DNA of 64,000 nucleotides from Candidatus Bathyarchaeota archaeon (GCA_026014875.1 JAOZHO010000017.1:11611-75610), one strand, 5' to 3'; counted from the first letter of the stretch, positions 1 through 55,012 are shown. Program-made: numbers and translations. The notes: generated by a model not told the origin, from the letters alone.

Positions 1-98
1 CACATGTGCGCGCTTTTATAAGTAGAATAACATTTAAATTATGTTGAAACATTACCCAATTTTCGAGAGAACAAGTCGCGCGTGTAGGTGAAAACGAA

Positions 99-536
99 AT
101 GAGTGATCTTTCAAGTGGAGCAAAAGGCAGGATTGGCGAAACTTTAGTGGCTTTAGAATTGGAAAAACGGGGTTGGTTTGTGTACCGACCGGATTTCGAG
201 GAAAAAGTCGATCTCATCGGATTAAGAGAACAAGATGAAATTTTCAAATACATATCTTTACAGGTCAAAACCTCCTTTTTAACAAAAGATCATTCAATAA
301 CAGTTCACAAGAAAAAACACCTAGAAGACCCTACTTTCTATTACGTCTTCTGCTTAATTGATACGTTTGAAAAACAACCCACATTCATTATCGTGCCAAG
401 CGTTGAACTAAACGAGGTAATGGAAAAAGCCTTTAAAACGCCTAGTTGGAAGGAAAAAGGGGCTTACACATTCCATATTCCTTCCAATCTTAGATTGGGC
501 AAATGGGAAAAATATCGAAATCGATTTAAATTTTAG
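99..536 (+). CDS. hypothetical protein, PD-(D/E)XK (Hjc/NucS-like) nuclease-fold candidate, within AT-rich foreign segment
   Basis: 145-aa ORF in a roughly 38% GC segment of an otherwise roughly 60% GC window. N-terminal GxxGExxVxxxLxxxGW followed by PD-x-EEK-VDLIG resembles restriction-endonuclease-like (P)D...(D/E)xK core motifs. Lies immediately upstream of tRNA-fragment copy 1. Confidence 0.4.
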   Translation: MSDLSSGAKGRIGETLVALELEKRGWFVYRPDFEEKVDLIGLREQDEIFKYISLQVKTSFLTKDHSITVHKKKHLEDPTFYYVFCLIDTFEKQPTFIIVPSVELNEVMEKAFKTPSWKEKGAYTFHIPSNLRLGKWEKYRNRFKF

Positions 537-563
537 ACTACGAGTCCAAGCGGACAAGGATTA

Positions 564-611
564 AGGGCTTTGGACCCTCCGACGCGAGTTCGAATCTCGC
601 CCGGGCTACCA
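564..611 (+). repeat. tRNA 3'-half fragment copy 1 (anticodon arm, T-arm GTTCGAATC, acceptor 3' strand, CCA), att-like direct repeat
   Basis: Sequence agggCTTTGGAccct...gcgaGTTCGAATctcgc-ccgggct-a-cca has a T-stem/loop and 3' acceptor plus CCA. No matching 5' acceptor strand lies upstream, so this is a partial tRNA. The loop cTTTGGa suggests anticodon TTG (Gln-like). Confidence 0.6.
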
Positions 612-692
612 ACCAATCTACTTGAATTATCGCGAACGTTATTTCTACAATCCTCAAAAGTTTTTATTATTGACCTAATAAACAAAGATTGT

Positions 693-1070
693 ATGAGAAC
701 AAATTTCAAATCGAAACGCTTTCAATACAATGGAATTCATAAAAAAGTTGTTCCAACCCATGAAAAACGGGGTCGACTCGTTCTAACCTCAGGTATTAAG
801 GGGCCTCATATTTTTCGGGATAGTGTTCATATCCATCAGGAAAATAGTAGTAATATCAACCTCTCTTCAGGTGATTTCAATCTCATTAGAGTAAATGTCA
901 TTCCTAATCAAACAGCAATTGTGAATCTTAGTGGATTTGCATCTTTCGAAGTTTGGCCTGAGATTGGGGTGATATCAATGTTCTCTGGTCTAGTTACGAA
1001 TAATGTTTTACATCTAGAAGCTGACGGGTCGGGAGTTGTACATATCTGTAAACTAATTGCTTCAAGATAA
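693..1070 (+). CDS. hypothetical protein (AT-rich cassette ORF between att copies 1 and 2)
   Basis: 125-aa ORF starting at an internal ATG of the 570..1070 frame. The reported 570 start lies inside the tRNA fragment, so it was trimmed. Low-complexity, AT-rich, no recognisable domain. Confidence 0.25.
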   Translation: MRTNFKSKRFQYNGIHKKVVPTHEKRGRLVLTSGIKGPHIFRDSVHIHQENSSNINLSSGDFNLIRVNVIPNQTAIVNLSGFASFEVWPEIGVISMFSGLVTNNVLHLEADGSGVVHICKLIASR

Positions 1071-1140
1071 TTAAATTAAACATTGACACTTTTCTCTTTA
1101 AAGGCATAGTAGAATTAAAATAACTGGTGTGTGTATGGGC

Positions 1141-1164
1141 GTTCCAATCTCGCCCGGGCTACCA
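1141..1164 (+). repeat. tRNA 3'-end fragment copy 2 (gttcCaatctcgcccgggctacca), att-like direct repeat
   Basis: 24 nt identical to 588..611 of copy 1 except one G/C change. Marks the end of the AT-rich segment 612..1140. Confidence 0.6.
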
Positions 1165-1238
1165 TGTTCCAGATTCGAGTTTCTGCGCGCGAGGTAGATA
1201 TTATACCATGAAGGGACTTTTCTTCATTTGACCTCATC

Positions 1239-2051
1239 ATGGCTAAACACGGAGACATACGAAAACAATGGAATAATCTAGCGGATTACTATATTTCGAA
1301 AGTTAGAGACGGAACAGACTTATGGAGACACTTCCTGAACGCCCCTGCGTTCACGAAGATGATAGGAGACGTACAAGGACTACGAATGCTAGACATGGCA
1401 TGTGGCGAGGGATACTTTTCCAGATTCTATGCCAAGGCCGGTGCACTAGTCACAGGGATAGACTTCAGCGAGAGCCAGATAGCAGCAGCCCAGGAAGCGG
1501 AGACGAGGGCTCCCCTAGGAATCCAGTATCACCTCGCTGATGCCTCTAAAATGGGTAACATTGAATCCGAGAGCTTCGACATCGTCATCAGTTTCATGGC
1601 ATTAATGGACATCGAAAACTACGAGGGAGCAATAATGCAAGCGGCCCGAGTGCTGAAGCCCGATGGTCGATTCGTGTTTATCTTAATCCATCCATGCTTC
1701 GGTTGGTCCAGAAGAGGATATGACGGAGAAATCTTGGTTAGATGGGAGTATAGAAGACTCGAGGACGGCTCCAGAGAGCCCCATTATCTCAAGATTTTCG
1801 AGTATTTCACGAACCATTCATACAAAATGCGGTGGAAGGACGATGAAGGCCACGAGGTTGCTGTCACAACTATGTTCCACCGGACTCTCACAGATTATAT
1901 GAAGACGTTAAGGAAAAACGGATTCCTAGTATCGCAGATCGAGGAGCCGCGGCCCGTTGAGGCTAAATTCGAGCCTAATGACATGAGCAAGCTAACAAAG
2001 ATACCCCACACAATCTGTGTTGAAGCTCTGAAACTTAATCCACATGTGTGA
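1239..2051 (+). CDS. class I SAM-dependent methyltransferase (Methyltransf_11-like)
   Basis: Motif I LDMACGEGYFS and post-I acidic residue (GIDFSE), Rossmann-type MTase layout, 270 aa. Confidence 0.8.
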   Translation: MAKHGDIRKQWNNLADYYISKVRDGTDLWRHFLNAPAFTKMIGDVQGLRMLDMACGEGYFSRFYAKAGALVTGIDFSESQIAAAQEAETRAPLGIQYHLADASKMGNIESESFDIVISFMALMDIENYEGAIMQAARVLKPDGRFVFILIHPCFGWSRRGYDGEILVRWEYRRLEDGSREPHYLKIFEYFTNHSYKMRWKDDEGHEVAVTTMFHRTLTDYMKTLRKNGFLVSQIEEPRPVEAKFEPNDMSKLTKIPHTICVEALKLNPHV

Positions 2052-2088
2052 GGGGGGGTTAGATGACTCTTATCCTACTGCGCGCTCT

Positions 2089-2127
2089 TACCCTCCGACG
2101 CGAGTTCGAATCTCACCCGGACTAGCA
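2089..2127 (+). repeat. tRNA 3'-end fragment copy 3 (diverged), att-like direct repeat
   Basis: accctccgacgcgagttcgaatctcAcccggActaGca, which has a few substitutions relative to copy 1. Confidence 0.55.
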
Positions 2128-2199
2128 GAATTCTTATCATCGAATCAGAGTTCTCAACCCTTATATCTATGGCATGATTCACACCATATGGTTGAATAA

Positions 2200-2475
2200 A
2201 TGGAGAACGCCACAACCATCGACAAACAGGGAAGGCTGGTCCTACCCTCCCACATCCGGGAGGCCCTGGGCCTCAAGGGAGGGGGGGAGGTAACCATAAG
2301 GCTGGACGGCTCCAGGGTCATCATAGAACCCGTCTCCAACGACGTCAAAAAGAATGTCCGGGAGTGGGAAGAACTCGCGAAGAGCCTCAACGCAGAGGCA
2401 TTCACCGAGGAGACCGACGAGAGCTGGAAGTGGACGAGCAGTGACTACGCCCGGAGAAAACTCGGCCTATCCTGA
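2200..2475 (+). CDS. AbrB/SpoVT-type swapped-hairpin antitoxin (VapB-like)
   Basis: KQGRLVLPSHIREALGLKGGGEVTI is typical of the AbrB/MazE N-terminal DNA-binding fold. Sits directly upstream of a PIN gene. Confidence 0.7.
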   Translation: MENATTIDKQGRLVLPSHIREALGLKGGGEVTIRLDGSRVIIEPVSNDVKKNVREWEELAKSLNAEAFTEETDESWKWTSSDYARRKLGLS

Positions 2476-2479
2476 CGGC

Positions 2480-2941
2480 GTCGTCGACGTCGGCATCATC
2501 GTCCCCACGTGCTTCGAGAACCCCCTCAAGGAGCACAGCACGGCGTTCCTCGCGGACGTCCTCACCCAGAGGAAGAAGGCCGCCATACCCGTCACAGCGA
2601 TCATCGGAGCCTACCACGTCGCCACCCGATACCTGCGGATCCCCAGGATGACGGTGAAGAAGACCCTGGGCGGCATCCTGAACACGGGCTCACCCGCCCT
2701 CTACGGCCACGTCTCACCCCAGACGGCCTGGGACGCCCTCGACTACGCCTCCACGTACCTCATCGAGTCGTGGGACGGATACCTCATCTCCCTGGCCCGA
2801 AGCCTCAGGTCGACCGTCGTCTTCTCCCTCGACGAGGAGCTCCGCAAGGTCAGAGAGATAACCCTCGTGAACCCGTTCCCCAGAGAAGACGTCGAGCGGT
2901 ACCACGACTCCCTGAAAAAAGGATTAAGACAACATCCCTAG
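2480..2941 (+). CDS. PIN-domain ribonuclease toxin (VapC-like), GTG start
   Basis: The 2354..2941 frame begins inside the antitoxin in another frame, so it was trimmed to GTG at 2480/2483 (VVDVGIIVP...). Acidic positions fit a PIN fold: N-terminal D, E in CFENP, D in DALDY, and C-terminal VVFSLDEEL (the PIN 'TxDxDF' equivalent). Confidence 0.55.
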   Translation, partial: VVDVGIIVPTCFENPLKEHSTAFLADVLTQRKKAAIPVTAIIGAYHVATRYLRIPRMTVKKTLGGILNTGSPALYGHVSPQTAWDALDYASTYLIESWDGYLISLARSLRSTVVFSLDEELRKVREITLVNPFPREDVERYHDSLKKGLRQHP

Positions 2942-2983
2942 ATCATGCGTCCAACCCCGGGTCAACCAAGGGTGGACGACGCA

Positions 2984-3021
2984 GGACCCCTCCGACGCGA
3001 GACCGAATCTCCCCCGATCTA
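2984..3021 (+). repeat. tRNA 3'-end fragment copy 4 (most diverged), att-like direct repeat
   Basis: ggacccctccgacgcgagaccgaatctcccccgatcta aligns to copy 1 with substitutions and one indel. Confidence 0.5.
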
Positions 3022-3168
3022 TCAATCCTCATCTGCCATGATATCCCGGGTCTTCACTCAATCACGCGCGAGGTCCCCCGTGGCCTCTATGCGCCAGCCC
3101 CGTCAAGGATGTCCCCCCGCATGGGAATGTTTATCTACCATTTTACCATAACTCAAACCAGTGGTATT

Positions 3169-3438
3169 ATGGCATCATTGGTGGAGTCGGACGGGTCAGG
3201 CCGGATAGTGATACCCAAGAGGATACGGGACGAGCACGGAATCACGGGCAGGACCCAGTTCCTCCTCACCAGCAACGGGAAGGGCCAGATCACACTCCAG
3301 AAGATAGACGTCGAGGAGATGGCCCAACGCCTCCAGGAGGAGCTCAGAGACGTCCCCGTCGAGGAGATGGCCAAGTCCATCAGGAAGGAGATAAATGACA
3401 AAATCAGATCAAGGCGCCGGGACCTTCCTCCTCGATAA
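3169..3438 (+). CDS. AbrB/SpoVT-type antitoxin (VapB-like)
   Basis: MASLVESDGSGRIVIPKRIRDEHGI... matches the AbrB swapped-hairpin motif. The long 2509..3438 frame spans att copy 4 and is a GC-frame artifact. The gene overlaps the downstream PIN gene by 44 nt. Confidence 0.65.
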   Translation: MASLVESDGSGRIVIPKRIRDEHGITGRTQFLLTSNGKGQITLQKIDVEEMAQRLQEELRDVPVEEMAKSIRKEINDKIRSRRRDLPPR

Positions 3439-3835
3439 CAACGTCTTCGTCTCCGCCATCAAGGACCCCGCCAGGGAGACGGCCACCCTCACGCTCATCC
3501 TGGAGATGATCCGGGACAAGAGCGTGGGCCTGGTGGGCAACGAGTTCCTGGCGGAGGAGATGGCCCGATACGCCGAGGCCTTCAGGTCGGAGACCGCCTC
3601 CCTCCTCCTCCACGCCCTCATCTCCAAGATGGACATCGTGGACGTCCAGGAGAGATTCACCGCCGCCTGCAGGAGCATCATGGGCACGGAGGACCCCGCC
3701 GACCTCCTCCACGCCGCCACCTGCCTCCAGACGGGCGCCACACTCATCACCAACGACCGCCACTTCAACAGCATAAGAGACCAGGGGATCATCGAGGTCT
3801 GGAGCACGGCAGAGGCCATCCGGAGGCTCCTCTGA
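3395..3835 (+). CDS. vapC: PIN-domain toxin VapC
   Basis: Classic PIN motifs FLLDNNVFVSA (N-terminal D) ... E ... D ... TLITNDRHF, 146 aa. Confidence 0.8.
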   Translation: MTKSDQGAGTFLLDNNVFVSAIKDPARETATLTLILEMIRDKSVGLVGNEFLAEEMARYAEAFRSETASLLLHALISKMDIVDVQERFTAACRSIMGTEDPADLLHAATCLQTGATLITNDRHFNSIRDQGIIEVWSTAEAIRRLL

Positions 3836-3891
3836 GCATCTCGCACCACGGACGTCCCTCCCCGGCCGCCCCACCGAACAGCCCCCCCTGG

Positions 3892-4452
3892 CTATTCACG
3901 CAGTGACTCGGCGAACCTGTGCGCGAAATCCCTTATCCTGTCCCAGTCCCTTAGATCGTTCCTGCCCTTCGCGTCGAGCTCCAGCCCCTTCTCCTTGGAC
4001 AGCCCCAGCATCACCGACTGAGCGATCTTCTTATCCAGGAACCCCATCCGGGACCCCGGCCCCACGTCCAACACCGGACCGAAGGCCTCCATCAGATCCG
4101 CCTCCACCCCCGCCGCCTCGGCCACCTTCTCAAGGAGATCCCTCCGGGCGTTCTCCGGCTCTACCAGCACCGACATGCAGGAGACGAACAGCGCCACCCT
4201 CCTCCCCCTGAGCTCGCCGGCCTTCCTCCTGAGGAACGCCAGGGGCTCCCCCATCCACTTGGATATCTTGACCCCGGAGCCCACCATCACACCGTCGTAC
4301 CCCTCCAGGCTAGGCCAGAGCCTGATCCTCTTGACATCCAGAACGGTGGCCTCCACCCCCTCCTCCCCCAGGAACCCCGCCAGCCTCTCCGCGATCTCCT
4401 CGGCGCTCCCCCACCGCGAGCCATAGGCGATCAGAACCCTCATGATCGACAC
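3892..4452 (-). CDS. flavodoxin-like fold protein
   Basis: MRVLIAYGSRWGSAEEIAERLAG... is a typical flavodoxin phosphate-binding N-terminus. Confidence 0.55.
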   Translation of the reverse strand: MSIMRVLIAYGSRWGSAEEIAERLAGFLGEEGVEATVLDVKRIRLWPSLEGYDGVMVGSGVKISKWMGEPLAFLRRKAGELRGRRVALFVSCMSVLVEPENARRDLLEKVAEAAGVEADLMEAFGPVLDVGPGSRMGFLDKKIAQSVMLGLSKEKGLELDAKGRNDLRDWDRIRDFAHRFAESLRE

Positions 4453-4726
4453 TGCGCCGACAAGGATAAAATAGGTTTACATCGGTCGCCGAGACCCAAT
4501 CCCCAGATCACTCGAATCCCTCCCACGACTCGCATGCAGACATACACACCATTCCTCGGGGACGATGAGGGATCCCCCGTTCATGCCAGCCATCCCGCCT
4601 CGACACACCATTTTCCTGCTCTATTTCCTTCCGTTCTCCGATAGGGGTCGCCCCACAGAAGCCTTGGACCCGCCATCGACGCTTCCCCGATCCGGGGTCG
4701 GCCGGGGCATCGGTTTTGTTAAAAAC

Positions 4727-6034
4727 ATGTTGCTGATTCCATTAATGATCGGAATGGAGTGCGACGTCCTAGTCATAGGCGCAGGAATCCTGGGCCTCAG
4801 CTCGGCCTACCACATCAAGAGGGAGAACCCCGGCAAGAATGTGGCGGTCATCGACAAGCACGGCGGCCCCGGGCAGGGGAACAGCGCCAAGAGCGAGGGG
4901 GGCTTCAGGAACCTCTTCACCTCGGAGACCAACTTCCTCCTCGCGGACTCCACAATCGACTGGTTCAAACACATGGAAGAAGAACTGGGCCACCACATCG
5001 GCCTGTCCTACATCGGCTACCTCTTCCTACTGAACGAGGAGCACTACACCGGCCAGAAGGAGTCCTGGGACAGGATCAGGGACCACGGGGGCGAGATGAG
5101 GGTGCTGGATAGGGAGGAGCTCGAGGAGATGATACCCGGTCTGGTCACCCACTTCGGGGACGACGAGGAGGCGGAGCTCCTGGGGCTAAACCCGGTCGAC
5201 TACGGCGTCTTCGGGAAAAAATGCGGATGCATCGACGCCGACGCCCTCACCAGGGCCTACGAGGCGGAGTTCCTCAATCTGGGCGGCGAGATACACTACG
5301 GCACCGAGGCGAAGAGCCTCACCCTGGAACCCGAACAGGAGCTGGAGATACCCGGGGAGCCCTTCGTCTGGCAGGACGCCCACATAACCGGCGCAGAGAC
5401 CACCCAGGGGAAGATACGAGCCGACACGACCGTCGTGGCCGCCGGGGTCTGGTCGGAGGGGCTCCTGGACCCCCTCGGCGTAGACTCCTTCATGAGGCCC
5501 AAGAAGAGGCAGCTCTTCGTCTTCAAGGACCCCCGGCTGGAATCCCTCTTCAACGTGGAGGGATTCAACGAGTACGGCACCATGCCCCTCACCATCCTGC
5601 CCAAGGCGGGCGTCCTATTCAGGCCGGAGCGGTCCGAGAACACCATCTGGCTGGCGTGCGCGGACAACCTGGGCAGGAAATACGAACTCGAGGAGGACCC
5701 CCAAGCCGAGGAGGGCTTCTACACCGAGAGCATATACCACATCCTGGTGAAGTACTTCCCCTGCTTCGAGGGCGTCCGCCCGATGAACAGTTGGGCGGGC
5801 CAGTACGCCATCAACGGCTACGACGAGCTGCCGGTGGTGACTCCCGCACCCGGCATGATCTACGTGGGCGCGGCCAGCGGAAGCGGCATCATGAAGTGCG
5901 ACTCTATCGCCCGCATAGCGGCGGCCCTATACGCCGGCAGGGAGGAGGCCGAGCTCTACGGCGGGCGCCGCTTCAGGGTGGCGGACCTCGGCATCCACAA
6001 CAGGAACGTCGAGAGGGAGAGCCTGATTCTTTAG
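4727..6034 (+). CDS. FAD-dependent oxidoreductase (DAO family, glycine/sarcosine-oxidase-like)
   Basis: DVLVIGAGILGLSSAY is a dinucleotide-binding motif. The C-terminal GxGxxG-type closing motif is typical of DAO enzymes. The start is probably ATG 4727 or 4754, and the reported 4565 start is an upstream extension. Confidence 0.8.
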   Translation: MLLIPLMIGMECDVLVIGAGILGLSSAYHIKRENPGKNVAVIDKHGGPGQGNSAKSEGGFRNLFTSETNFLLADSTIDWFKHMEEELGHHIGLSYIGYLFLLNEEHYTGQKESWDRIRDHGGEMRVLDREELEEMIPGLVTHFGDDEEAELLGLNPVDYGVFGKKCGCIDADALTRAYEAEFLNLGGEIHYGTEAKSLTLEPEQELEIPGEPFVWQDAHITGAETTQGKIRADTTVVAAGVWSEGLLDPLGVDSFMRPKKRQLFVFKDPRLESLFNVEGFNEYGTMPLTILPKAGVLFRPERSENTIWLACADNLGRKYELEEDPQAEEGFYTESIYHILVKYFPCFEGVRPMNSWAGQYAINGYDELPVVTPAPGMIYVGAASGSGIMKCDSIARIAAALYAGREEAELYGGRRFRVADLGIHNRNVERESLIL

Positions 6035-7746: not shown

Positions 7747-9669
7747 GTGCGTCGATCCATGACACCTGAAATCGAAGTCGTATTCCAACCCCACGGGAAG
7801 CGCGCCAAGTTTTCCCAGGGCGTCACCGTGATGGAGGCGGCGCAGGCCCTCGGCGTGGACATCTCCGCCCTCTGCGGGGGGAAAGGGAAATGCGGGAAGT
7901 GCAAGGTCAGAGTCTTGGGCGGTGTCGGGACGGATTCCAAACCCACAGATAAAGAGCTGAAGCACCTCTCCGAGGATGAGATCCGGGACGGATTCAGGCT
8001 CGCGTGCACCACTCGCCTGGGGGCCTCCACGGTCATCCACGTGCCCCTGAGGAGCAGGATAGGCAGGCAGAGGCTGCAGACGGGGGGCCTCGAAGTCCCC
8101 GTGAAGCTGGACCCCCTCGTGAAAAAGTATCGCGTGACCATGCCCCCGCCCCATCTCAGAGACTCCAGGGCGGACGAGGACAGGCTCCTCGCCTCGTTGA
8201 CCGAGGAACATGGCCTCCCGGAGCTAGGGATCGACTTCGACATCTACCGGGTCCTCCCCAGGGTCGTCCGGGAGGCCAAGTGGGACGCGACCGCCGTCGT
8301 CTGGAAGGACAGGATCATCGCCCTGGAGCCCGGGGACACATCTGACAGGTGCTTCGGGCTCGCCGTTGACGTGGGGACCACCAAGCTCGCCGGCTTCCTC
8401 ATCGACCTCAAGAGGGGGGAGGTCGTCGCCGTGGCTGCGAGGATGAACCCTCAGATCCCCTTCGGGGAGGACGTCATGTCCCGGGTCTCCCATGTCATGA
8501 GCGGGGGATGGGATGCCCTCGAGAAGCTCCAGGACGCCGTCGTCTCGGGGGTCAACGAGATCGTCGTGGAATGCTGCGGGAAAGCCGATGCGAGACCCGA
8601 GGAGATCTACGAGCTCAACTTCGTGGGGAACACGGTGATGCAGCTCCTCCTCCTCGGAGTCTGGCCGAGACACGTCGTTTCCTCCCCCTTCACTCCAGCT
8701 ATAAGGAGGGGGGTCGACGTCAAAGCCGCTACTTTGGGTTTAAGGGTTAATCTAGGTGCCAACGCCCACCACCTGCCGGTGATAGGGGGATTCGTGGGGG
8801 CGGACAACGTCGCGATGGTGCTTGCGTCGGGGATTCTAGAGTCCGACGAGATGATCATAGCCATCGACGTGGGCACCAACACCGAGATCGACCTGGGGAA
8901 CAGGGAGCTTGTCATGGTGGCCTCGTGCGCGTCGGGTCCGGCCTTCGAGGGGATGCACATAAAGTTCGGGATGAGGGCCACCACAGGGGCCATAGAGAAG
9001 GTCGGCATCGACCCCGAGACCTTCGACGTATACTATCGGACCATCGGGGACGCACCTCCCATCGGGATCTGCGGCTCCGGCATAGTGGACGCCCCGGCGG
9101 AGTTCCTCAAGGCGGGCCTCATCATGCCCCGGGGGAACTTCGTCACCGGAATGACTGAGCGGACGGACCGGTTGAGGAAGGGTCCGGACGGCTGGGAATT
9201 CGTGATAGCGTGGGGGAAGGAGACGGATATCGGCACGGACATCGTCGTCACCCTCAAGGACATCAGGGAGCTCCAGAAGGCCAAGGCAGCCATCCACACC
9301 GGCGCAGACCTCCTGATGCAGAGGATGGGAATACGCGAGGCCGAGATCAGCAAGCTCGTGGTCGCTGGGGCCTTCGGCAACTACATCGACCCCGAGAACG
9401 CCCGCATCATAGGGATGTACCCTGAGATTCCCTTGGAACGCATCGAGTTCGCCGGCAACCTCGCAGGAACGGGCGCCAGAATGACACTAATGAGCAGGGA
9501 GATGAGGGAGCACGCCGAGATGATCAGCTCCAGGGTCAGGTACCACGAGCTCGCGGCGGACCCGGGCTTCCAGAAGGAATACATCGACTCCCTGAACTTC
9601 CCCCACTCCGACCTATCGAAATACCCAGAGACCGTGGAGCTACTCCGGAGATACGGTCAGAAGATCTGA
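7747..9669 (+). CDS. RACo-like protein (DUF4445): N-terminal plant-type 2Fe-2S ferredoxin plus ASKHA ATPase domain, putative reductive activator of corrinoid proteins
   Basis: N-terminal CGGKGKCGKCKV ... C is a 2Fe-2S ferredoxin. The central AVDVGTTKLAGFLIDL...NPQIPFGEDVMSRVS and the later AIDVGTNTE are ASKHA phosphate motifs. Length is 640 aa. Confidence 0.65.
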   Translation: MRRSMTPEIEVVFQPHGKRAKFSQGVTVMEAAQALGVDISALCGGKGKCGKCKVRVLGGVGTDSKPTDKELKHLSEDEIRDGFRLACTTRLGASTVIHVPLRSRIGRQRLQTGGLEVPVKLDPLVKKYRVTMPPPHLRDSRADEDRLLASLTEEHGLPELGIDFDIYRVLPRVVREAKWDATAVVWKDRIIALEPGDTSDRCFGLAVDVGTTKLAGFLIDLKRGEVVAVAARMNPQIPFGEDVMSRVSHVMSGGWDALEKLQDAVVSGVNEIVVECCGKADARPEEIYELNFVGNTVMQLLLLGVWPRHVVSSPFTPAIRRGVDVKAATLGLRVNLGANAHHLPVIGGFVGADNVAMVLASGILESDEMIIAIDVGTNTEIDLGNRELVMVASCASGPAFEGMHIKFGMRATTGAIEKVGIDPETFDVYYRTIGDAPPIGICGSGIVDAPAEFLKAGLIMPRGNFVTGMTERTDRLRKGPDGWEFVIAWGKETDIGTDIVVTLKDIRELQKAKAAIHTGADLLMQRMGIREAEISKLVVAGAFGNYIDPENARIIGMYPEIPLERIEFAGNLAGTGARMTLMSREMREHAEMISSRVRYHELAADPGFQKEYIDSLNFPHSDLSKYPETVELLRRYGQKI

Positions 9670-29229: not shown

Positions 29230-30126
29230 ATGTCCGTCGAGGCTATAACAGACACCATCTCGATGATCGACTCCCCCTACCACGGACTCGGGGAGGTGCT
29301 CGAAACATACCTGATACAGGGACAGAAGTCAGCTGTAATCGACCCGGGCCCCGCACCCCTCGTCCCGGGGGTCATCGAGACCCTCGAAGCGACCGGGGTG
29401 ACCCATCTCGACTACATCCTACTGACCCACATCCACATCGACCACGCCGGCGGCTGCTGGAAGATGCTGGAGACGTACCCCGACGCCACGATCCACTGCC
29501 ACCCCCGAGGAGCGGAGCACGTCATCGACCCCTCGAGACTCCTCGCCGCCGCCGGGAAAATCTTCGGCGACGCCCTCAGCGAGTTCGGCGAGGTACGAGG
29601 CGTGCCAGCGGAGAGGGTCGCAGAGTCCACGGACGGTGAGACCCTGAACCTGGGAGGGGTCAGCCTCGAGACGATCTGGACCCCCGGCCACTCAAGCCAC
29701 AGCCAGAGCTACTTCGAGCCGGACTCCGGGGTGGTCTTCGCGGGGGACGCCGCCGGCTACTACCCCGGGAACAAGGGGGTCCTCGTCCCCGATGCCCCCC
29801 CTCCCCACAACCCCGCCCAGGCCGCGGATAGCCTCCTCAAACTGATGAGGTACGAACCGAAGACCATCGCCTACAGCCATTTCGGGTACTACGATGAAGC
29901 GACGACTCGGCTTGAACGCTTCCTCGATCAGACGAGGCTTTGGGATCGACTCGCCCAGGACGGGGTCGAAGCGGGCCTCTCGTTGAACGATATATTCGAT
30001 CTGCTCGTCGAGGAGGATCCCGAAGCCCGGGAGCTCGCCGGAATCGACGAGGAGGGCAAGAGGGCGGTCTACTTCAATCTGAAGAGCTTCGTCGGATATG
30101 CGAAATGGCGGAGAAAGTCTCCGTAA
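29230..30126 (+). CDS. MBL-fold metallo-hydrolase
   Basis: LLTHIHIDHAGG is an HxHxDH motif, with downstream His/Asp ligands. Confidence 0.85.
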   Translation: MSVEAITDTISMIDSPYHGLGEVLETYLIQGQKSAVIDPGPAPLVPGVIETLEATGVTHLDYILLTHIHIDHAGGCWKMLETYPDATIHCHPRGAEHVIDPSRLLAAAGKIFGDALSEFGEVRGVPAERVAESTDGETLNLGGVSLETIWTPGHSSHSQSYFEPDSGVVFAGDAAGYYPGNKGVLVPDAPPPHNPAQAADSLLKLMRYEPKTIAYSHFGYYDEATTRLERFLDQTRLWDRLAQDGVEAGLSLNDIFDLLVEEDPEARELAGIDEEGKRAVYFNLKSFVGYAKWRRKSP

Positions 30127-30253
30127 GGGGATGACCTAGTTCCCTTTTTTTGAGCAGTATTCAGATCACCCACTCGCTTGAAAAAGAGAAAAAAACATCA
30201 GAAAACTCGATTCGACTATAAACTCCTGGCCGCCTCTCGGCGTCTGAGCTTAT

Positions 30254-30433
30254 CTAGAACCTTCTTGGCGGCCTGTGCTTAGCAAAGCACTCACGGCAGT
30301 AAACCGGCCTGCCCTCTGTCGGCTTGAAGGGGACCTCGGCCTCCTTCCCGCAATCAGAGCAGATGATCTTGGTCATCTCACGCGGGCCACGGTCGTATCC
30401 ACCGCGCCTATCTCTATAACCCAATACTTTCAC
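30254..30433 (-). CDS. small CxxC-x17-CxxC zinc-ribbon protein, copy A (59 aa, GTG start; core MTKIICSDCGKEAEVPFKPTEGRPVYCRECFAKHRPPRRF)
   Basis: Hand translation of the minus strand. Paralog of 30752..30934 and not in the ORF track because it is 59 aa. Confidence 0.6.
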   Translation of the reverse strand: MKVLGYRDRRGGYDRGPREMTKIICSDCGKEAEVPFKPTEGRPVYCRECFAKHRPPRRF

Positions 30434-30751
30434 TCCTATTCTGTGTGTATGCTCAGAACGCCTCTCGGTATTCGCCGCACACTGGGCACGCAGGGGTATT
30501 TCTCCCTTTTAAACCATTTTACGCAAAGCCAACCATAAACAACCTAAACCAGAGTCGTGCGCGATGAGGGCGGTTTTATTCAGTCTGAAGAGCTTCGTCG
30601 GATATGCGAAATGGTTGAGAAAGTCTCAGTGACCAGATTACCTGTTTCGGGTCATCCTTCAGAACCCTCACTAGCTTGGAAAAAAAGAAAAAACAATAGA
30701 AAACTCGATTCGACTATAAACTCCTGGCCGCCTCTCGGCGTCTGAGCTTAT

Positions 30752-30934
30752 CTAGAACCTTCTTGGCGGCCTGTGCTTAGCAAAGCACTCACGGCAGTAA
30801 ACCGGCCGGCCCTCTGTCGGCTTGAAGGGAACCTCGTCCTCCTTCCCGCAATCAGAGCACGTGATCTTTGTCATCTCACGCGGGCCGCGGTCGTATCCAC
30901 CGCGCCTGTTGTCTCTATAACCCAATACTTTCAC
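30752..30934 (-). CDS. small CxxC-x17-CxxC zinc-ribbon protein, copy B (60 aa)
   Basis: MKVLGYRDNRRGGYDRGPREMTKITCSDCGKEDEVPFKPTEGRPVYCRECFAKHRPPRRF. Differences from copy A are mostly synonymous, plus one in-frame 3-nt indel. Confidence 0.65.
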   Translation of the reverse strand: MKVLGYRDNRRGGYDRGPREMTKITCSDCGKEDEVPFKPTEGRPVYCRECFAKHRPPRRF

Positions 30935-31100
30935 TCCTATTCTGTGTGTATGCTCAGAACGCCTCGCGGTATTCTCCGCACACTGGGCACGCAGGCGCGG
31001 TTCTCCCTTTTAAACCCTTTTACGCCGACCCAACTATAAACAGGCAAATCCAAAAGAACCTCCTAGAATAAATAACTGGAGAGGACCCGGGGGATATACG

Positions 31101-44612: not shown

Positions 44613-45137
44613 TCAGCGTTCATCGATGAGGTTATCGTATCTCATCCATTTCCCGTTCTCCAGATCGTAGAACCAGGCCTTCTTGGGGCGTTCCCGGGCT
44701 CTGGCGCTCACCTCCAGGAGCCTCTCGGCTGAACGCCTGTCCTCGAACCTGATGCGTAGGCCAGTGCGTCCCTCCACAATCTCCGCCAAGGCGGGGCAGT
44801 TGAGGTCGAGGCCCATCTGCTGCCTGCCTTGGGGGCCCTCCCTGAGGGAGAAGGGAAATTGTCGGCAACTCGCAGGCCTCCTGTCGTGAATGCGGCACTC
44901 GGCTTCCCCAAGGTGAGGGCACGTCTCCTCAACTAGCTGGTGGGCGATGACGGTGAAGCCCCTCTCATGGGGGCGTCTCCCGATCCCGACGGCGGGCCTG
45001 ACAGATGCCTCAGGGAACAACTCCTCCTCTCCCGGGAGCAGCGTGAGCCCTCTCAGGACCCCCTTGTCCTCCTGCACGAGGTCCCTGCAACACGTGCCGC
45101 ACCTTCGGCACTCGAAGACCGTTTCATCCCCCGGCAT
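44613..45137 (-). CDS. YkgJ-family cysteine-cluster protein (UPF0153)
   Basis: FECRRCGTCCR ... CPHL...C ... C is the CxxCxxCC signature of the YkgJ Fe-S/Zn-binding family. Confidence 0.75.
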   Translation of the reverse strand: MPGDETVFECRRCGTCCRDLVQEDKGVLRGLTLLPGEEELFPEASVRPAVGIGRRPHERGFTVIAHQLVEETCPHLGEAECRIHDRRPASCRQFPFSLREGPQGRQQMGLDLNCPALAEIVEGRTGLRIRFEDRRSAERLLEVSARARERPKKAWFYDLENGKWMRYDNLIDER

Positions 45138-45637
45138 ATCGAATCATCTTGGAGTTCGGAGTTATTGAACTAACCTGCCTGTGATGCCTCAATGGACCCC
45201 CCTCATTCACTTTCATAAGAGTCCTCAGCCAAGCACGGGGAACTCAGTCAGATGCGGTTTGGTGCATCCATATGGGATGAAAAACGGTGCGTATGGTGTC
45301 AATGAAGATTATTCTCATAAAAATATCTGAGAAAGGTGATGATCAAATATCTCGATGGGTTATGTGACACTCATGTCGAAGGGAGAACGTACACAAGAGC
45401 AAAAAAAGCCGCTACCCCCAAGTATGGTTGAACAACTCTTCAATTTTTAATGATGTAAACGTCAAGCCCGTTGAAACGTGATTGAAAAAAGAGAAGAAAA
45501 ATTTGTAACCCCCGTTTAATGACCCTTCTCTCCGCGAACAGCCAATTTCCGTTATACATATTGAAGTTATATGGCAAATCCTAGCCCCCAGAACCACCCT
45601 TAGTTTTAAATATGAATAAAGAAAGAATAAGATCACC

Positions 45638-45883
45638 ATGAGTGACGTAACATTCAACCTGCAACCAGTAGATGAAAAACCCACAAGGAAATACCGGAAG
45701 GGCAGCAAGTACGACCCCCTCCTCGACGCCTTCATGTCCGGCCCCAACGACCTGGTCTCCGTCAACGTGGCGGGGAAAGACGCCAACTACCTCAGGACCC
45801 AGCTCAACAAGAGGATAGACGCCAGAAACCTCCCCAGCGTCAAAGTCTCCGTCGTCAACAACGTCTGCTACCTGGAGAAATAG
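45638..45883 (+). CDS. hypothetical small basic protein (81 aa)
   Basis: Preceded by a strongly AT-rich 500-bp region and followed by a T-rich terminator-like run (ccccttttttctc). Confidence 0.4.
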   Translation: MSDVTFNLQPVDEKPTRKYRKGSKYDPLLDAFMSGPNDLVSVNVAGKDANYLRTQLNKRIDARNLPSVKVSVVNNVCYLEK

Positions 45884-45997
45884 TAGACCCCAGCCCCCAA
45901 TATACCCCTTTTTTCTCTTAAAACCATAAAACCAGGTTTAACCCCGGGACCCCTTATCCTATGCTACCACCCATAACGAAACACTTCATGGAGAGAA

Positions 45998-46083
45998 TGG
46001 CGCCGCGGAAGGGATTCGAACCCTTGAGGCACAAAGGCCACTGGTTTTCGAGACCAGCACGATAACCACTCTGTCACCACGGC
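45998..46083 (-). tRNA. tRNA-Ser (anticodon CGA), long variable arm, CCA encoded
   Basis: Minus-strand reading GCCGTGG...CTGGT-CTCGAAA-ACCAG...variable arm...AGGGTTCGAATCCCTT-CCGCGGC-G-CCA. The acceptor pairs 7/7 with one G·U. The 86-nt length fits class II tRNA. Confidence 0.8.
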
Positions 46084-52290: not shown

Positions 52291-53397
52291 TTATCTGATT
52301 CGGAAACGCCTCTGATAGTAGTACAGGGTTTGAAGAACCAAGAATTGGATGAAGGCGTTCGCCACTGTCGAAAACTGGTCAATATAGAACTGTATCAAGT
52401 TAATCCCCACTAGATAGATGAGCAGCCCAATTGAGCCCAACCCCAATCCTGCCTTTTCCTTGCCAAAAATCAAGAGGGCCGCACTAAGTAGCAAGATCAA
52501 CCCCACGATCCCCTCCATCCCTACTTGGACGGTCGCCCAGAACATTGACATGCTGGTTACCACCGGTAACTTCGCAAGCCTCTCTTGGAGCAGGTCCCTG
52601 AACGCCAATGGGTCGCCCCACACACCGAGATAGTAAACGAGTCGGAGCGACGCAGCCAACCCCATGAGCAACACGCCCACTATGATGAATACTCTGAGTC
52701 TACCTTGGCTCAGCCATCTCCCCTCAAAATCGGTGAACCGGTCGATGGCCCTATCGTAAAGGCTCGGTTCATCGGGGGCGATGTGGATGGCCTCCGAGTC
52801 GACGAACTCCAGGATCTGATCGGCTAGCAGTCCGAGATCGGTGTTCTGCGCCTTCTCTTTGATACGTTTCAGCCTCTCCCTGAGCTCGTCGTGCTCCTCT
52901 GGATCCATGTCGTGGTCTATCGCCTCCTCCAGCGACTCCAAGACTGCATAGAACTCAGTCCTCGTGTCTAACGGGGTCTCTTTGGTCACCCTGCTATAGA
53001 CCAAGACCGAGGTCAGGAAGAACGCGTAGATTATGGGGGCCGCGGCGGGGAAGAAGTAGTCATTGTTCTGGGTGATGAATTTCCCGACTTCGTCTATGAA
53101 CAGCCCAACCCCCACGCCGGATATCACGCTCGTCCACGTGTAGGCCCATCTGTTCGCGTATATGAGGGGGATTAGGCTGCTGATGTACAGGAGGACTCCC
53201 CCGTATAGGACGTGGGCTATATGGAGGGTCTCGTTCCCGAGCTGAGGGTAGCCAGTCAACTCCAGGAAAAATCTGGTGAATGTCACGGAGGCTGCGAAGC
53301 TGAGCAGGTTCAACTGGAGATATCTTTCAGCGCCTTTACGCCTCACGGGCTTGGAAACCCTGCTTATTATCTGGCTCAATCTAGATCCTGTGGACAT
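52291..53397 (-). CDS. polytopic membrane protein, hypothetical
   Basis: 368 aa with multiple hydrophobic helices and an acidic cytoplasmic loop (DHDMDPEEHDELRERLKRIKEK). Confidence 0.5.
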   Translation of the reverse strand: MSTGSRLSQIISRVSKPVRRKGAERYLQLNLLSFAASVTFTRFFLELTGYPQLGNETLHIAHVLYGGVLLYISSLIPLIYANRWAYTWTSVISGVGVGLFIDEVGKFITQNNDYFFPAAAPIIYAFFLTSVLVYSRVTKETPLDTRTEFYAVLESLEEAIDHDMDPEEHDELRERLKRIKEKAQNTDLGLLADQILEFVDSEAIHIAPDEPSLYDRAIDRFTDFEGRWLSQGRLRVFIIVGVLLMGLAASLRLVYYLGVWGDPLAFRDLLQERLAKLPVVTSMSMFWATVQVGMEGIVGLILLLSAALLIFGKEKAGLGLGSIGLLIYLVGINLIQFYIDQFSTVANAFIQFLVLQTLYYYQRRFRIR

Positions 53398-53608
53398 ATT
53401 TAGGAAAGGATTTTATTAAAGAACGCCCCGGAAAAGAATAATCCCCCAATCTCTCCAATAGTGAAACATACTCATTTCGCAAATTAGGATACTATAAAGA
53501 GAGGACCCTCAATTCTAATTCTCTCTAAAATGACCATGTTATGGTCGTCGCATACCGCTACAAACATTAAATTATTTAGCCTGCGCGATATATACAAGGT
53601 GATCCGAC

Positions 53609-53809
53609 GTGTCAACAGCCAAGCTGAAGAAACAGATACTTGTACACCTCGATGAGAAGCCCCTGAGCCTGAGCGAGGTGGCTGAAATGATGGAACTCAA
53701 GGAGAAGAGAACGTTCAAGCTCCTCAGGTCCCTATTCAGCAAAGACCAGATCAAGATGATCCGGGACGAGGACGGCATCAGGAAATACAAAAAAAACGCC
53801 AAGGCTTGA
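53609..53809 (+). CDS. small winged-helix-like protein (66 aa), hypothetical
   Basis: KLKKQILVHLDEKPLSLSEVAEMMEL resembles a wHTH recognition unit. Confidence 0.35.
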   Translation: MSTAKLKKQILVHLDEKPLSLSEVAEMMELKEKRTFKLLRSLFSKDQIKMIRDEDGIRKYKKNAKA

Positions 53810-53944
53810 ACCGGGATACTCGTTTGTTTATGGCCCCTTCGTCTTTAGGGTGAATTAATCCCAGAGCAAGTAAGGCGTCTTTCCGGAGAGACACTTTAAT
53901 AACAGAAATGAATACCTAACTGAAAGTCCAACGAAGGTATCGAA

Positions 53945-55012
53945 TTGGGAAAGATCAAGGTCGCAATAGCGGGACTAGGTAGCTGCGCCTCAGCCCTAAT
54001 ACAGGGCGTTGAGTACTACAAGGACCAGAAGGAGGGGGAGATCCCCGGCCTAATGCACGTCGACTTCGGCGGCTACTTCATCGAGGACATCGAGTTCGTC
54101 GCCGCCTTCGATGTGAACAGCAAAAAGATCGGCAGGGACATCTCGGAGGCCATCTTCGCGGAGCCCAATCTCTGCGCGAAATATGCCGAGGTCCCCGCCA
54201 CCGGGGTGAAGGTTCAGCCTGGCCCAGTCTCCGACGGCGTCGCCCCTCACATGCGGGAGCCCTTCTTCGTCGAGGGCCACGAGCCCGTCGACGTCGCGGA
54301 GATCCTCAGGGAGTCCGAGGCTGACATGCTCATCAACTACCTCCCGGTAGGCAGCGGCGAGGCCACCCAGATCTACGTCCAGTCGGCCCTCGACGCAAGG
54401 TGCGCCTTCGTCAACTGCATCCCCGCGTTCATCGCCTCAGTCCCCGAGTGGGCCGAGAAATTCGTGAACGCCGGCCTCCCCGTCGCAGGGGACGACATCA
54501 AGAGCCAGGTCGGGGCCACCATCCTCCACAGGGCTGTCGCGGAACTCTTTTCTGACCGTGGGGTTCACATCGATTCCACCTACCAGCTCAACATCGGGGG
54601 GAACACCGACTTCCTCAACATGACCGTGGAAAACCGCCTTCACACGAAGCGGGTGAGCAAGACCGAGGCCGTCACGAGCATAATACCCTACGAGGTCCCC
54701 ACCCGGATCGGGCCCAGCGACTATGTTCCCTTCCTTGAGGACCACAAGATCTGTTACATCAGGGTCAACGGTAAGGGCTTCGGGGATCTCCCCGTCACCT
54801 TGGACCTCAAGCTGGTGGTGAACGATTCACCCAACAGCGGCGGCGTGGTCATAGATGTCGTCCGGGCGGTGAAGCTTGCCCTCGACAGGGGCATATCTGG
54901 CCCCCTCACCAGCATCTCGTCCTACGCGTTCAAGCATCCCCCACTCCAGGTTAGCGACGACGTCGCGAAAAATCTGGTGGAAGACTTTATCCAGGGGAAA
55001 ATCGAGCGCTGA
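53945..55012 (+). CDS. myo-inositol-1-phosphate synthase (archaeal type)
   Basis: KVAIAGLGSCASALIQG is the NAD-binding N-terminus, and the downstream NIGGNTDF is characteristic of archaeal MIPS. Confidence 0.85.
   Translation: MGKIKVAIAGLGSCASALIQGVEYYKDQKEGEIPGLMHVDFGGYFIEDIEFVAAFDVNSKKIGRDISEAIFAEPNLCAKYAEVPATGVKVQPGPVSDGVAPHMREPFFVEGHEPVDVAEILRESEADMLINYLPVGSGEATQIYVQSALDARCAFVNCIPAFIASVPEWAEKFVNAGLPVAGDDIKSQVGATILHRAVAELFSDRGVHIDSTYQLNIGGNTDFLNMTVENRLHTKRVSKTEAVTSIIPYEVPTRIGPSDYVPFLEDHKICYIRVNGKGFGDLPVTLDLKLVVNDSPNSGGVVIDVVRAVKLALDRGISGPLTSISSYAFKHPPLQVSDDVAKNLVEDFIQGKIER

Follow-up and report, generated by a model that had tools for sequence, protein, structure and literature searches.

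Tyrosine-recombinase elements carry an attachment site (attP) that copies the 3′ part of a tRNA gene, and their integrase recombines attP with the chromosomal tRNA gene. In archaea, re-use of one attachment (att) site gives arrays of tandem integrated elements (PMC6563490, PMC8371274), and the att sites known from crenarchaea are 29–69 bp long (PMC6563490). The PYG1 island of Pyrococcus yayanosii lies between one incomplete and one complete tRNA-Gln(TTG) copy, with 44-bp repeats (PMC9897764), and in the tycheposon islands of Prochlorococcus new elements displace older ones, with partial tRNAs and degraded elements scattered (bioRxiv 10.1101/2020.12.28.424599). Elements of Sulfolobus and Pyrococcus have also been described in terms of "gene capture" (She et al. 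2001–2004, cited in PMC8371274). Here, a locus at the left end of a 64,000-nucleotide stretch of Candidatus Bathyarchaeota archaeon DNA (GCA_026014875.1, JAOZHO010000017.1:11611-75610; the whole stretch is termed the window below) is compared with these systems. With a probability of roughly 0.8, a Bathyarchaeon of high guanine-plus-cytosine (GC) content has an integration hot spot at tRNA-Gln(UUG), whose distal side takes up positions 1–3024 and possibly the DNA up to about 3888. On a decay model, the four tRNA-Gln fragments in this region are, with the same rough probability, attR scars (displaced tRNA tails) of repeated integration, from the youngest (copy 1) to the oldest (copy 4). Serial integration had been proposed in an initial annotation made from the sequence alone, and the proposal is supported by the tRNA-Gln identity of the fragments, a gradient in base composition, a breakpoint at copy 3 in a related contig (L036), a unit shared with another contig (L050), and the recurrence of such loci in other genomes.

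The fragments were delimited by local alignment to a Bathyarchaeota tRNA-Gln(UUG), taken from the genome L004, and by blastn-short:

549–611, + strand, copy 1: tRNA-Gln(UUG) positions 14–76, 61/63 identical, alignment score 116
1141–1164, + strand, copy 2: tRNA-Gln positions 53–76 (T-loop, acceptor 3′ strand, CCA), 23/24 identical, score 43
2090–2127, + strand, copy 3: tRNA-Gln positions 39–76, 35/38 identical, score 61
2984–3024, + strand, copy 4: tRNA-Gln positions 37–76, 6 substitutions and a 1-nt insertion, score 45

The initial annotation had listed four direct repeats of one tRNA 3′ portion and had taken the tRNA to be Gln-like with anticodon TTG; alignment found all four, each matching tRNA-Gln(UUG), and copy 1 includes CCA and the anticodon loop CTTTGGA (TTG). 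The earlier coordinates were broadly right, except that copy 1 is longer than the 564–611 first assigned to it, with weaker similarity reaching back to about 544; the other shifts are small. A repeat finder run on positions 1–5000 returned a single four-member direct-repeat family (574–611, 1127–1164, 2090–2127, and 2987–3024). Over the whole window, on either strand, the best alignment score outside the four copies was 25 and the median 14, and a search with a 24-mer allowing up to 3 mismatches matched copies 1–3 alone, with 0 matches in 100 shuffles. The fragments thus do not belong to a family dispersed within the 64 kb; dispersal throughout the genome had been named in advance as speaking against integration. 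It was also found that the 37-nt core of copy 1 has five exact matches in four Bathyarchaeota metagenome-assembled genomes (MAGs), all but one of them within intact tRNA-Gln(UUG) genes; the exception is a fragment.

Only 3′ parts of the tRNA recur, all on the + strand in the orientation of the tRNA, as expected of attR remnants. The 5′ part of tRNA-Gln is absent from 1–4000 and is represented elsewhere in the window by chance 11-mers only, and copy 1 itself is without the 5′ acceptor strand. Neither ARAGORN nor Rfam calls a tRNA in 1–4500, copy 1 being likewise uncalled by both, and in annotation these fragments should not be labelled tRNA genes. The array had originally been drawn over 1–3850; its four scars as far as copy 4 stand, and no scar is detectable past copy 4 or near 3850, where a candidate fifth scar at 3836–3891 was rejected as a 7-nt match at background score. 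Directly 5′ of copy 2, the sequence at 1127–1139 (GTGTGTGTATGGG) is similar to the conserved leader that directly precedes intact tRNA-Gln genes in Bathyarchaeota (TGTGTATGG in the genome L003). This likeness may be due to chance, or copy 2 may be a tRNA gene that has lost an internal part.

Divergence from the functional tRNA increases from left to right (2/63, 1/24, 3/38, and 6/41 plus an indel), so that the order read by eye in the initial annotation is confirmed by alignment to tRNA-Gln. The T-arm is mutated in copies 2–4, and in copies 3 and 4 the changes disrupt the T-stem pair 50–64 and the conserved T-loop without compensation, which indicates neutrally decaying scars rather than functional or conserved RNAs.

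A second gradient runs through the DNA between the fragments, whose GC contents compare as follows with 59.7% for the background (the remaining 59.5 kb of the window):

1–548: GC 37%, segment of the open reading frame (ORF) designated ORF1
612–1140: GC 35%, ORF2 segment
1165–2089: GC 48%, methyltransferase segment
2128–2986: GC 59%, segment of VapBC-like pair 1
3025–3888: GC 61.5%, segment of VapBC pair 2

The first two segments lie under every background window of the same size in GC content, and 1165–2089 lies at the 0.6th percentile. Trinucleotide usage agrees with the GC gradient, foreign at the left and host-like at the right, and the nearest relatives of the three left segments are found in contigs of 36–49% GC. 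The foreign composition expected between attR remnants is therefore seen in these three segments, and the comparison of composition with the rest of the window that had been recommended earlier gave the same picture of foreign DNA at the left grading rightward into host-like DNA. A few other kilobases of the window are also low in GC against about 60%, namely 45001–46000 (48%), 53001–54000 (48%), and 30001–31000 (53%). The first of these adjoins the 3′ end of a tRNA-Ser(CGA) gene at 45998–46083; a second integration site there was considered and dropped, as no repeats of tRNA-Ser were found.

Comparison with related contigs shows polymorphism with breakpoints at the repeats, again as expected of attR remnants. 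The metagenomic contig L036 (Ga0255054_10008679) is 94% identical to window positions 2092–3888 and 4646–5272. High identity starts directly after copy 3, the fragment itself being only about 68% identical, and extends across copy 4 and the VapBC pairs on either side of it; to the left of copy 3, L036 carries unrelated DNA of 42% GC with a GYD-domain gene and more than one ORF. Copy 4 in L036 is orthologous, differing by 1 nt and sharing the derived changes. Since copy 4 and its flanks are common to both strains, the distal array predates the split between them, and the part proximal to copy 3 was gained or replaced after the split, with the junction at the tRNA fragment. At the other end of the array, contig L050 is 88% identical to window positions 87–608, i.e., ORF1 and a more decayed fragment, and the homology ends at the 3′ end of the fragment (copy 1 in the window); ORF1 has been conserved in L050 while its tRNA fragment has decayed.

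A second strain-variable slot lies between the two matching blocks of L036 (window 3888–4646 versus L036 2520–4798), with no tRNA fragment or repeat at its junctions. In L036 the flavodoxin gene on the − strand is replaced there by two + strand genes, which encode a 329-aa protein without family match and a DUF364/DUF4213 protein. Three further contigs (L006, L037, and L044) have an MBL-fold hydrolase gene and a 114-aa ORF at that slot, upstream of the DAO gene. A clean empty site did not turn up: relatives identified by way of the DAO gene (L006, L007, L008, L037, L044, and others) have a different upstream neighbourhood with no tRNA or fragments.

In four other Bathyarchaeota genomes, AT-rich DNA, tRNA-Gln fragments, or duplicated tRNA-Gln genes occur at the same place. 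In L003 (JADHWN010000014.1, 1–3594), an intact tRNA-Gln is followed by fragments at 2620–2661 (42 nt) and 849–897 (49 nt), and possibly by a third at 2008–2028 (21 nt, marginal, E = 0.31). The inter-fragment DNA has 27–34% GC versus 62% in the 5′ flank, the AT-rich DNA does not stop at the last fragment but reaches the end of the locus, and the modules, of 0.6–1.1 kb, are co-oriented with the tRNA; no integrase was found within 3.5 kb downstream or 4.4 kb upstream of the intact tRNA. A possible fragment of the 5′ part (positions 5–26) was observed at L003 4831–4852, and a further tRNA-Gln(UUG) gene of the same MAG is located on a different contig (L005). The tRNA-Gln of L004 is flanked by DNA of 49% GC on its 3′ side and of 63% GC on its 5′ side. 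L001 (CP070640.1) has an orphan tRNA-Gln fragment of 50 nt at 7774–7823 (98% identity). Housekeeping genes occupy the 7 kb upstream of it, and an intact tRNA is absent, which shows that scars can be parted from their tRNA, e.g., by rearrangement.

L002 (JAOZHP010000041.1, 4195–6752) has two intact tRNA-Gln(UUG) genes 2.4 kb apart, and between them 2.1 kb of 33% GC (a Schlafen/AlbA_2 gene and a 246-aa ORF) together with a C-terminal flavodoxin remnant. This layout suggests an element with a whole tRNA copy or an imprecise rearrangement. The remnant is 79% identical to window positions 3891–4114 and adjoins tRNA-Gln in the same relative orientation, which ties the flavodoxin gene of the window to the ancestral neighbourhood of tRNA-Gln; it is probably the original chromosomal neighbour facing the 3′ end of that gene. 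Relatives of the L002 gene that flanks tRNA-Gln (L052 and L053) have no tRNA-Gln nearby, and synteny is not conserved. A chromosomally encoded L002 protein is 64% identical to a 268-aa polyferredoxin-type 4Fe-4S protein of L051 (ENA ERZ25039527, contig_79633, 87,953 nt). The L051 protein is encoded between the portal and capsid modules of a head-tailed virus-like region with terminase, portal, and capsid genes, and may represent an auxiliary metabolic gene.

The genes of the array and its right-hand neighbour, with one short intergenic feature, are as follows:

99–536, + strand, ORF1 (145 aa), predicted PD-(D/E)xK-fold nuclease; MCW3988847.1 (NWE88_02090), also P0001, 100% identical
693–1070, + strand, ORF2 (125 aa), an ORFan with no family match
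1239–2051, + strand, class I S-adenosylmethionine (SAM)-dependent methyltransferase; Pfam Methyltransf_11, E = 5e-23; sole gene of 1165–2089
2041–2064, strand not assigned, half-copy of an intergenic palindrome that is typical of donor-like lineages, placed after the stop codon of the methyltransferase
2200–2475, + strand, AbrB/MazE-type (VapB-like) antitoxin of pair 1; Pfam MazE_antitoxin, E = 9.5e-10; NCBIfam AbrB, E = 5e-12
2453–2941, + strand, putative PIN-like toxin of pair 1, overlapping the antitoxin gene; weak PIN match, E = 0.009, sub-cutoff; conserved in L036
3169–3438, + strand, AbrB-type antitoxin of pair 2, past the last scar; Pfam MazE_antitoxin, E = 7.7e-6
3395–3835, + strand, PIN-domain (VapC-type) toxin of pair 2; Pfam PIN, E = 3e-11
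3892–4452, − strand, flavodoxin; Pfam Flavodoxin_5; host-like composition

All ORFs of the array are on the + strand, as are the fragments, and they form five units (7 ORFs), all intact. The units stand about 70–80 nt from the fragment upstream (144 nt for the last unit) and 40–70 nt from the one downstream. As read from the sequence, an AT-rich, TATA-like stretch lies about 30 nt ahead of the ATG of each unit, with candidate boxes about 58–80 nt upstream for ORF1. The initial annotation had assigned one module to each segment, and the nuclease-like ORF, the AT-rich ORF, the methyltransferase, and VapBC are indeed present; the VapBC-like pairs, however, are two, the second of them past copy 4.

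The nuclease-like character of the ORF in the first segment is backed by fold matches and a conserved motif. Although ORF1 has no sequence match in Pfam, NCBIfam, PADLOC, or PDB, its AlphaFold model (pLDDT 86) matched I-Ssp6803I (TM score 0.6), the SPARDA nuclease domain, and Hjc in a Foldseek search against PDB. Among 12 homologues, E14, D38, and K57 never vary and Q55 is replaced only once, by E, giving a D38...Q/E55-x-K57 motif, and on this predicted structure the assignment to the PD-(D/E)xK nucleases holds. A search of 1.84 billion cluster representatives yielded just two close relatives of ORF2, at 90% and 88% identity. When VapBC is defined as an AbrB/MazE antitoxin overlapping a downstream PIN toxin, both domains of pair 2 are above the Pfam cutoffs, whereas in pair 1 the antitoxin is clear and the PIN match sub-threshold; the operon layout of pair 1 is that of a toxin-antitoxin system. 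A recent duplication of the pairs was rejected, because they share only 24–27% identity (27% for the antitoxins).

With regard to the methyltransferase, the DNA at 1193–2064 is 87–91% identical to genes in contigs of 44–49% GC (L054–L058). In two of these lower-GC, Bathyarchaeia-like contigs (L054 and L058), many intergenic regions carry a palindrome of about 35 nt (GTGTGTGTGG-ATAAAATTTAA-CCCCCCACACACA, with GCGCGCG variants and GTTAAAT/ATTTAAC boxes), of which L054 1–20834 (Ga0115863_1001936) has at least 9 copies in 20.8 kb. Regular-expression and mismatch searches of the 64-kb window found no full copy; the half-copy at 2041–2064 remains, and possibly a further remnant at 1–13. The palindrome of L054 and L058 could be a REP-like element or a terminator. 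Its GTTAAAT/ATTTAAC boxes had prompted the idea of an integron attC, which was set aside because the palindrome measures no more than about 35 nt and the genes around it do not share one orientation.

Under serial integration, the attP of each element would have copied from 24 to about 65 nt of the 3′ part of tRNA-Gln, depending on the element. On insertion, the copy brought by the element would complete the tRNA gene (attL), the displaced chromosomal tail would be left at the far end (attR), and each new insertion at the restored tRNA would move the earlier elements and their scars downstream. The DNA ahead of each scar would then be the remainder of the element that made it, copy 1 being the attR-type scar of an element bearing ORF1, and the unlike scar lengths (about 63, 24, 38, and 41 nt) point to different elements. 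Deletion may subsequently have trimmed each element to one transcription unit, and the units may have been retained as addictive (the VapBC-like pairs) or possibly useful (the nuclease and the methyltransferase). The donors would be lower-GC Bathyarchaeia; because the 3′ half of tRNA-Gln is common to those lineages, a single att site would serve them all.

Several observations weigh against this account. No intact tRNA-Gln occurs in the window, where the only tRNA called by ARAGORN is the tRNA-Ser(CGA) at 45998–46083, and the orphan in L001 indicates that a fragment is no guarantee of an intact tRNA nearby. The earlier statement that no integrase is present in the window stands for 1–6 kb, the part covered here, in which neither the ORFs nor those overlapping the fragments matched a recombinase, Phage_integrase-type or other. 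Among viral contigs, neither the 34-nt nor the 24-nt att core had an exact match, and neither ORF1 nor ORF2 had a relative; blastn against plasmids and phages brought up no sequence with this att site. As the composition of the two distal segments is host-like, their foreign origin is inferred from position only, and the methyltransferase relatives in L054–L058 stand in ordinary contexts without tRNA fragments. Finally, every segment is exactly one intact, promoter-bearing, co-oriented transcription unit, which is unusual: random decay of elements of 10–20 kb would be expected to leave pseudogenes and mixed orientations, unlike the single intact units seen here. Selection for addictive or useful genes, combined with deletion bias, can explain such remnants. 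The SSV-type variant of integration suggested in the initial annotation found no support. ORFs running through or beside each fragment have no family match to int(N) or int(C) pieces, and each fragment sits between the end of one gene and the promoter of the next; the lack of any integrase piece in 1–6 kb or across the fragments argues against a self-partitioning integrase of this type.

The regularity of the units has also been considered under a different scheme, an integron-like platform at tRNA-Gln(UUG), in which single-unit cassettes with tRNA-derived sites would be captured singly through a recombinase whose gene lies elsewhere. The tRNA gene would then correspond to attI and the fragments to attC, and the segments would never have been parts of larger elements; for Bathyarchaeia this would mean co-oriented arrays stabilised by toxin-antitoxin cassettes and exchanged between lineages of very different GC. 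The five units (7 ORFs) are intact and co-oriented with uniform margins, 1–6 kb holds no pseudogenes or integrase remnants, and the methyltransferase is the sole gene of its segment, drawn from surroundings that lack tRNA fragments. The cargo is also apt, since toxin-antitoxin, methyltransferase, and nuclease genes dominate integron cassettes, archaeal ones included (PMC9668308). In L050, ORF1 and its fragment form a portable unit, although no fragment precedes it within 354 nt, and L003 has co-oriented modules of 0.6–1.1 kb without an integrase within 3.5 kb downstream or 4.4 kb upstream, although a platform integrase beside its intact tRNA is then missing too. The fragments, however, are unequal in length (63, 24, 38, and 41 nt), which suggests different attP sequences rather than one type of site, each unit has its own TATA-like box, unlike typical promoterless cassettes, and the L036 segment to the left of copy 3 holds more than one ORF. 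As selection and deletion bias also yield intact remnants, and the basis of the scheme is two arrays only, we regard it as unlikely.

Much less probable still, and applicable to copy 1 only, is the idea that ORF1 is a free-standing or intron-type homing endonuclease for tRNA-Gln genes, with the 63-nt piece as homology arm or 3′ exon. I-Ssp6803I is a PD-(D/E)xK homing endonuclease encoded in a tRNA-fMet intron. It is the best whole-length structural match of ORF1 (TM score 0.6), but the fold match is generic, with Hjc, EcoRV, and SPARDA scoring similarly. Copy 1 is unusually long (positions 14–76), and the window and L050 share the pairing of ORF1 with the tRNA piece at a distance of 12 nt; yet the 548 nt upstream in the window and the 354 nt upstream in L050 contain no 5′ exon or 5′ tRNA part, the decayed L050 fragment beside a conserved ORF1 is ill-suited to a functional exon, and 63 nt falls within the archaeal att range of 29–69 bp (PMC6563490). 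The least credible account dispenses with mobile elements: the tRNA-Gln gene or its flank would have been duplicated locally in tandem and the copies would have become pseudogenes, or else the copies would be functional 3′ halves of split tRNAs. The two intact tRNA-Gln genes 2.4 kb apart in L002 and the leader-like sequence just 5′ of copy 2 would suit a duplication. The inter-copy segments, however, are mutually unrelated and range from 35% to 61% GC, the VapBC-like pairs are only 24–27% identical, the copies begin at four different tRNA positions, and segments have been replaced at fragments in the L036 and L050 comparisons; the T-arm mutations are uncompensated, and neither 5′ halves nor complementary leaders are present.

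Bathyarchaeia are an abundant, uncultured sediment group whose mobile elements have barely been described, and no description of such loci in Bathyarchaeota was found in the literature. In this group, tRNA-Gln(UUG) emerges as a hot spot entered repeatedly by foreign DNA. Lineages of about 47% to 60% GC have one 37-nt tRNA tail in common, which provides a simple route for gene flow, as a single att site fits all of them. Scar decay, composition, and sharing between strains together give an internal time order that is useful in dating gene gain. If single intact co-oriented units hold generally, cassette-like capture would be indicated rather than simple decay of large elements.

Split tRNA genes are known from Nanoarchaeum and Caldivirga, and the locus described here resembles them in having stand-alone tRNA 3′ portions in an archaeal genome. 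It differs from them in the absence of 5′ halves and of a complementary leader, in the variable starts, and in the uncompensated mutations, all of which indicate that the fragments are not functional halves. With integrons, including the archaeal ones (Ghaly et al. 2022, PMC9668308), it shares an ordered series of small co-oriented cassettes with a site-like repeat at the 3′ end, the newest nearest the insertion point, and a cargo in which toxin-antitoxin, methylase, or nuclease genes are common. On the other hand, the repeats here are heterogeneous tRNA 3′ fragments (24–63 nt) without the R″/L″...L′/R′ boxes of attC, the only palindrome in them is the T-arm, which is mutated in copies 2–4, no IntI or attI was seen in 1–6 kb, and the units have their own promoters.

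The closest likeness is to the islands with which this account opened. Like tycheposon islands and arrays formed by re-use of an att site, the locus shows serial use of one tRNA, older units pushed distally, partial tRNAs as separators, adaptive or defence-flavoured cargo, and content that varies between strains. Tycheposon islands retain recognisable and fragmented integrases, none of which was detected here in 1–6 kb, and the modules here are uniformly single transcription units. Compared with archaeal islands of the PYG1 type, four scars are stacked 0.5–0.9 kb apart instead of bounding one element of 9–23 kb, no integrase is visible in 1–6 kb, and the host is a Bathyarchaeon. The target is the same tRNA-Gln (UUG), the repeat is likewise the tRNA 3′ part, beginning at about the anticodon arm and reaching the 3′ end, the DNA ahead of the partial copy is likewise foreign in composition, and all four scar lengths fall within or near the crenarchaeal att range of 29–69 bp (PMC6563490). 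The locus is thus an instance in Bathyarchaeia of a well-known kind of genomic island rather than a new mechanism.

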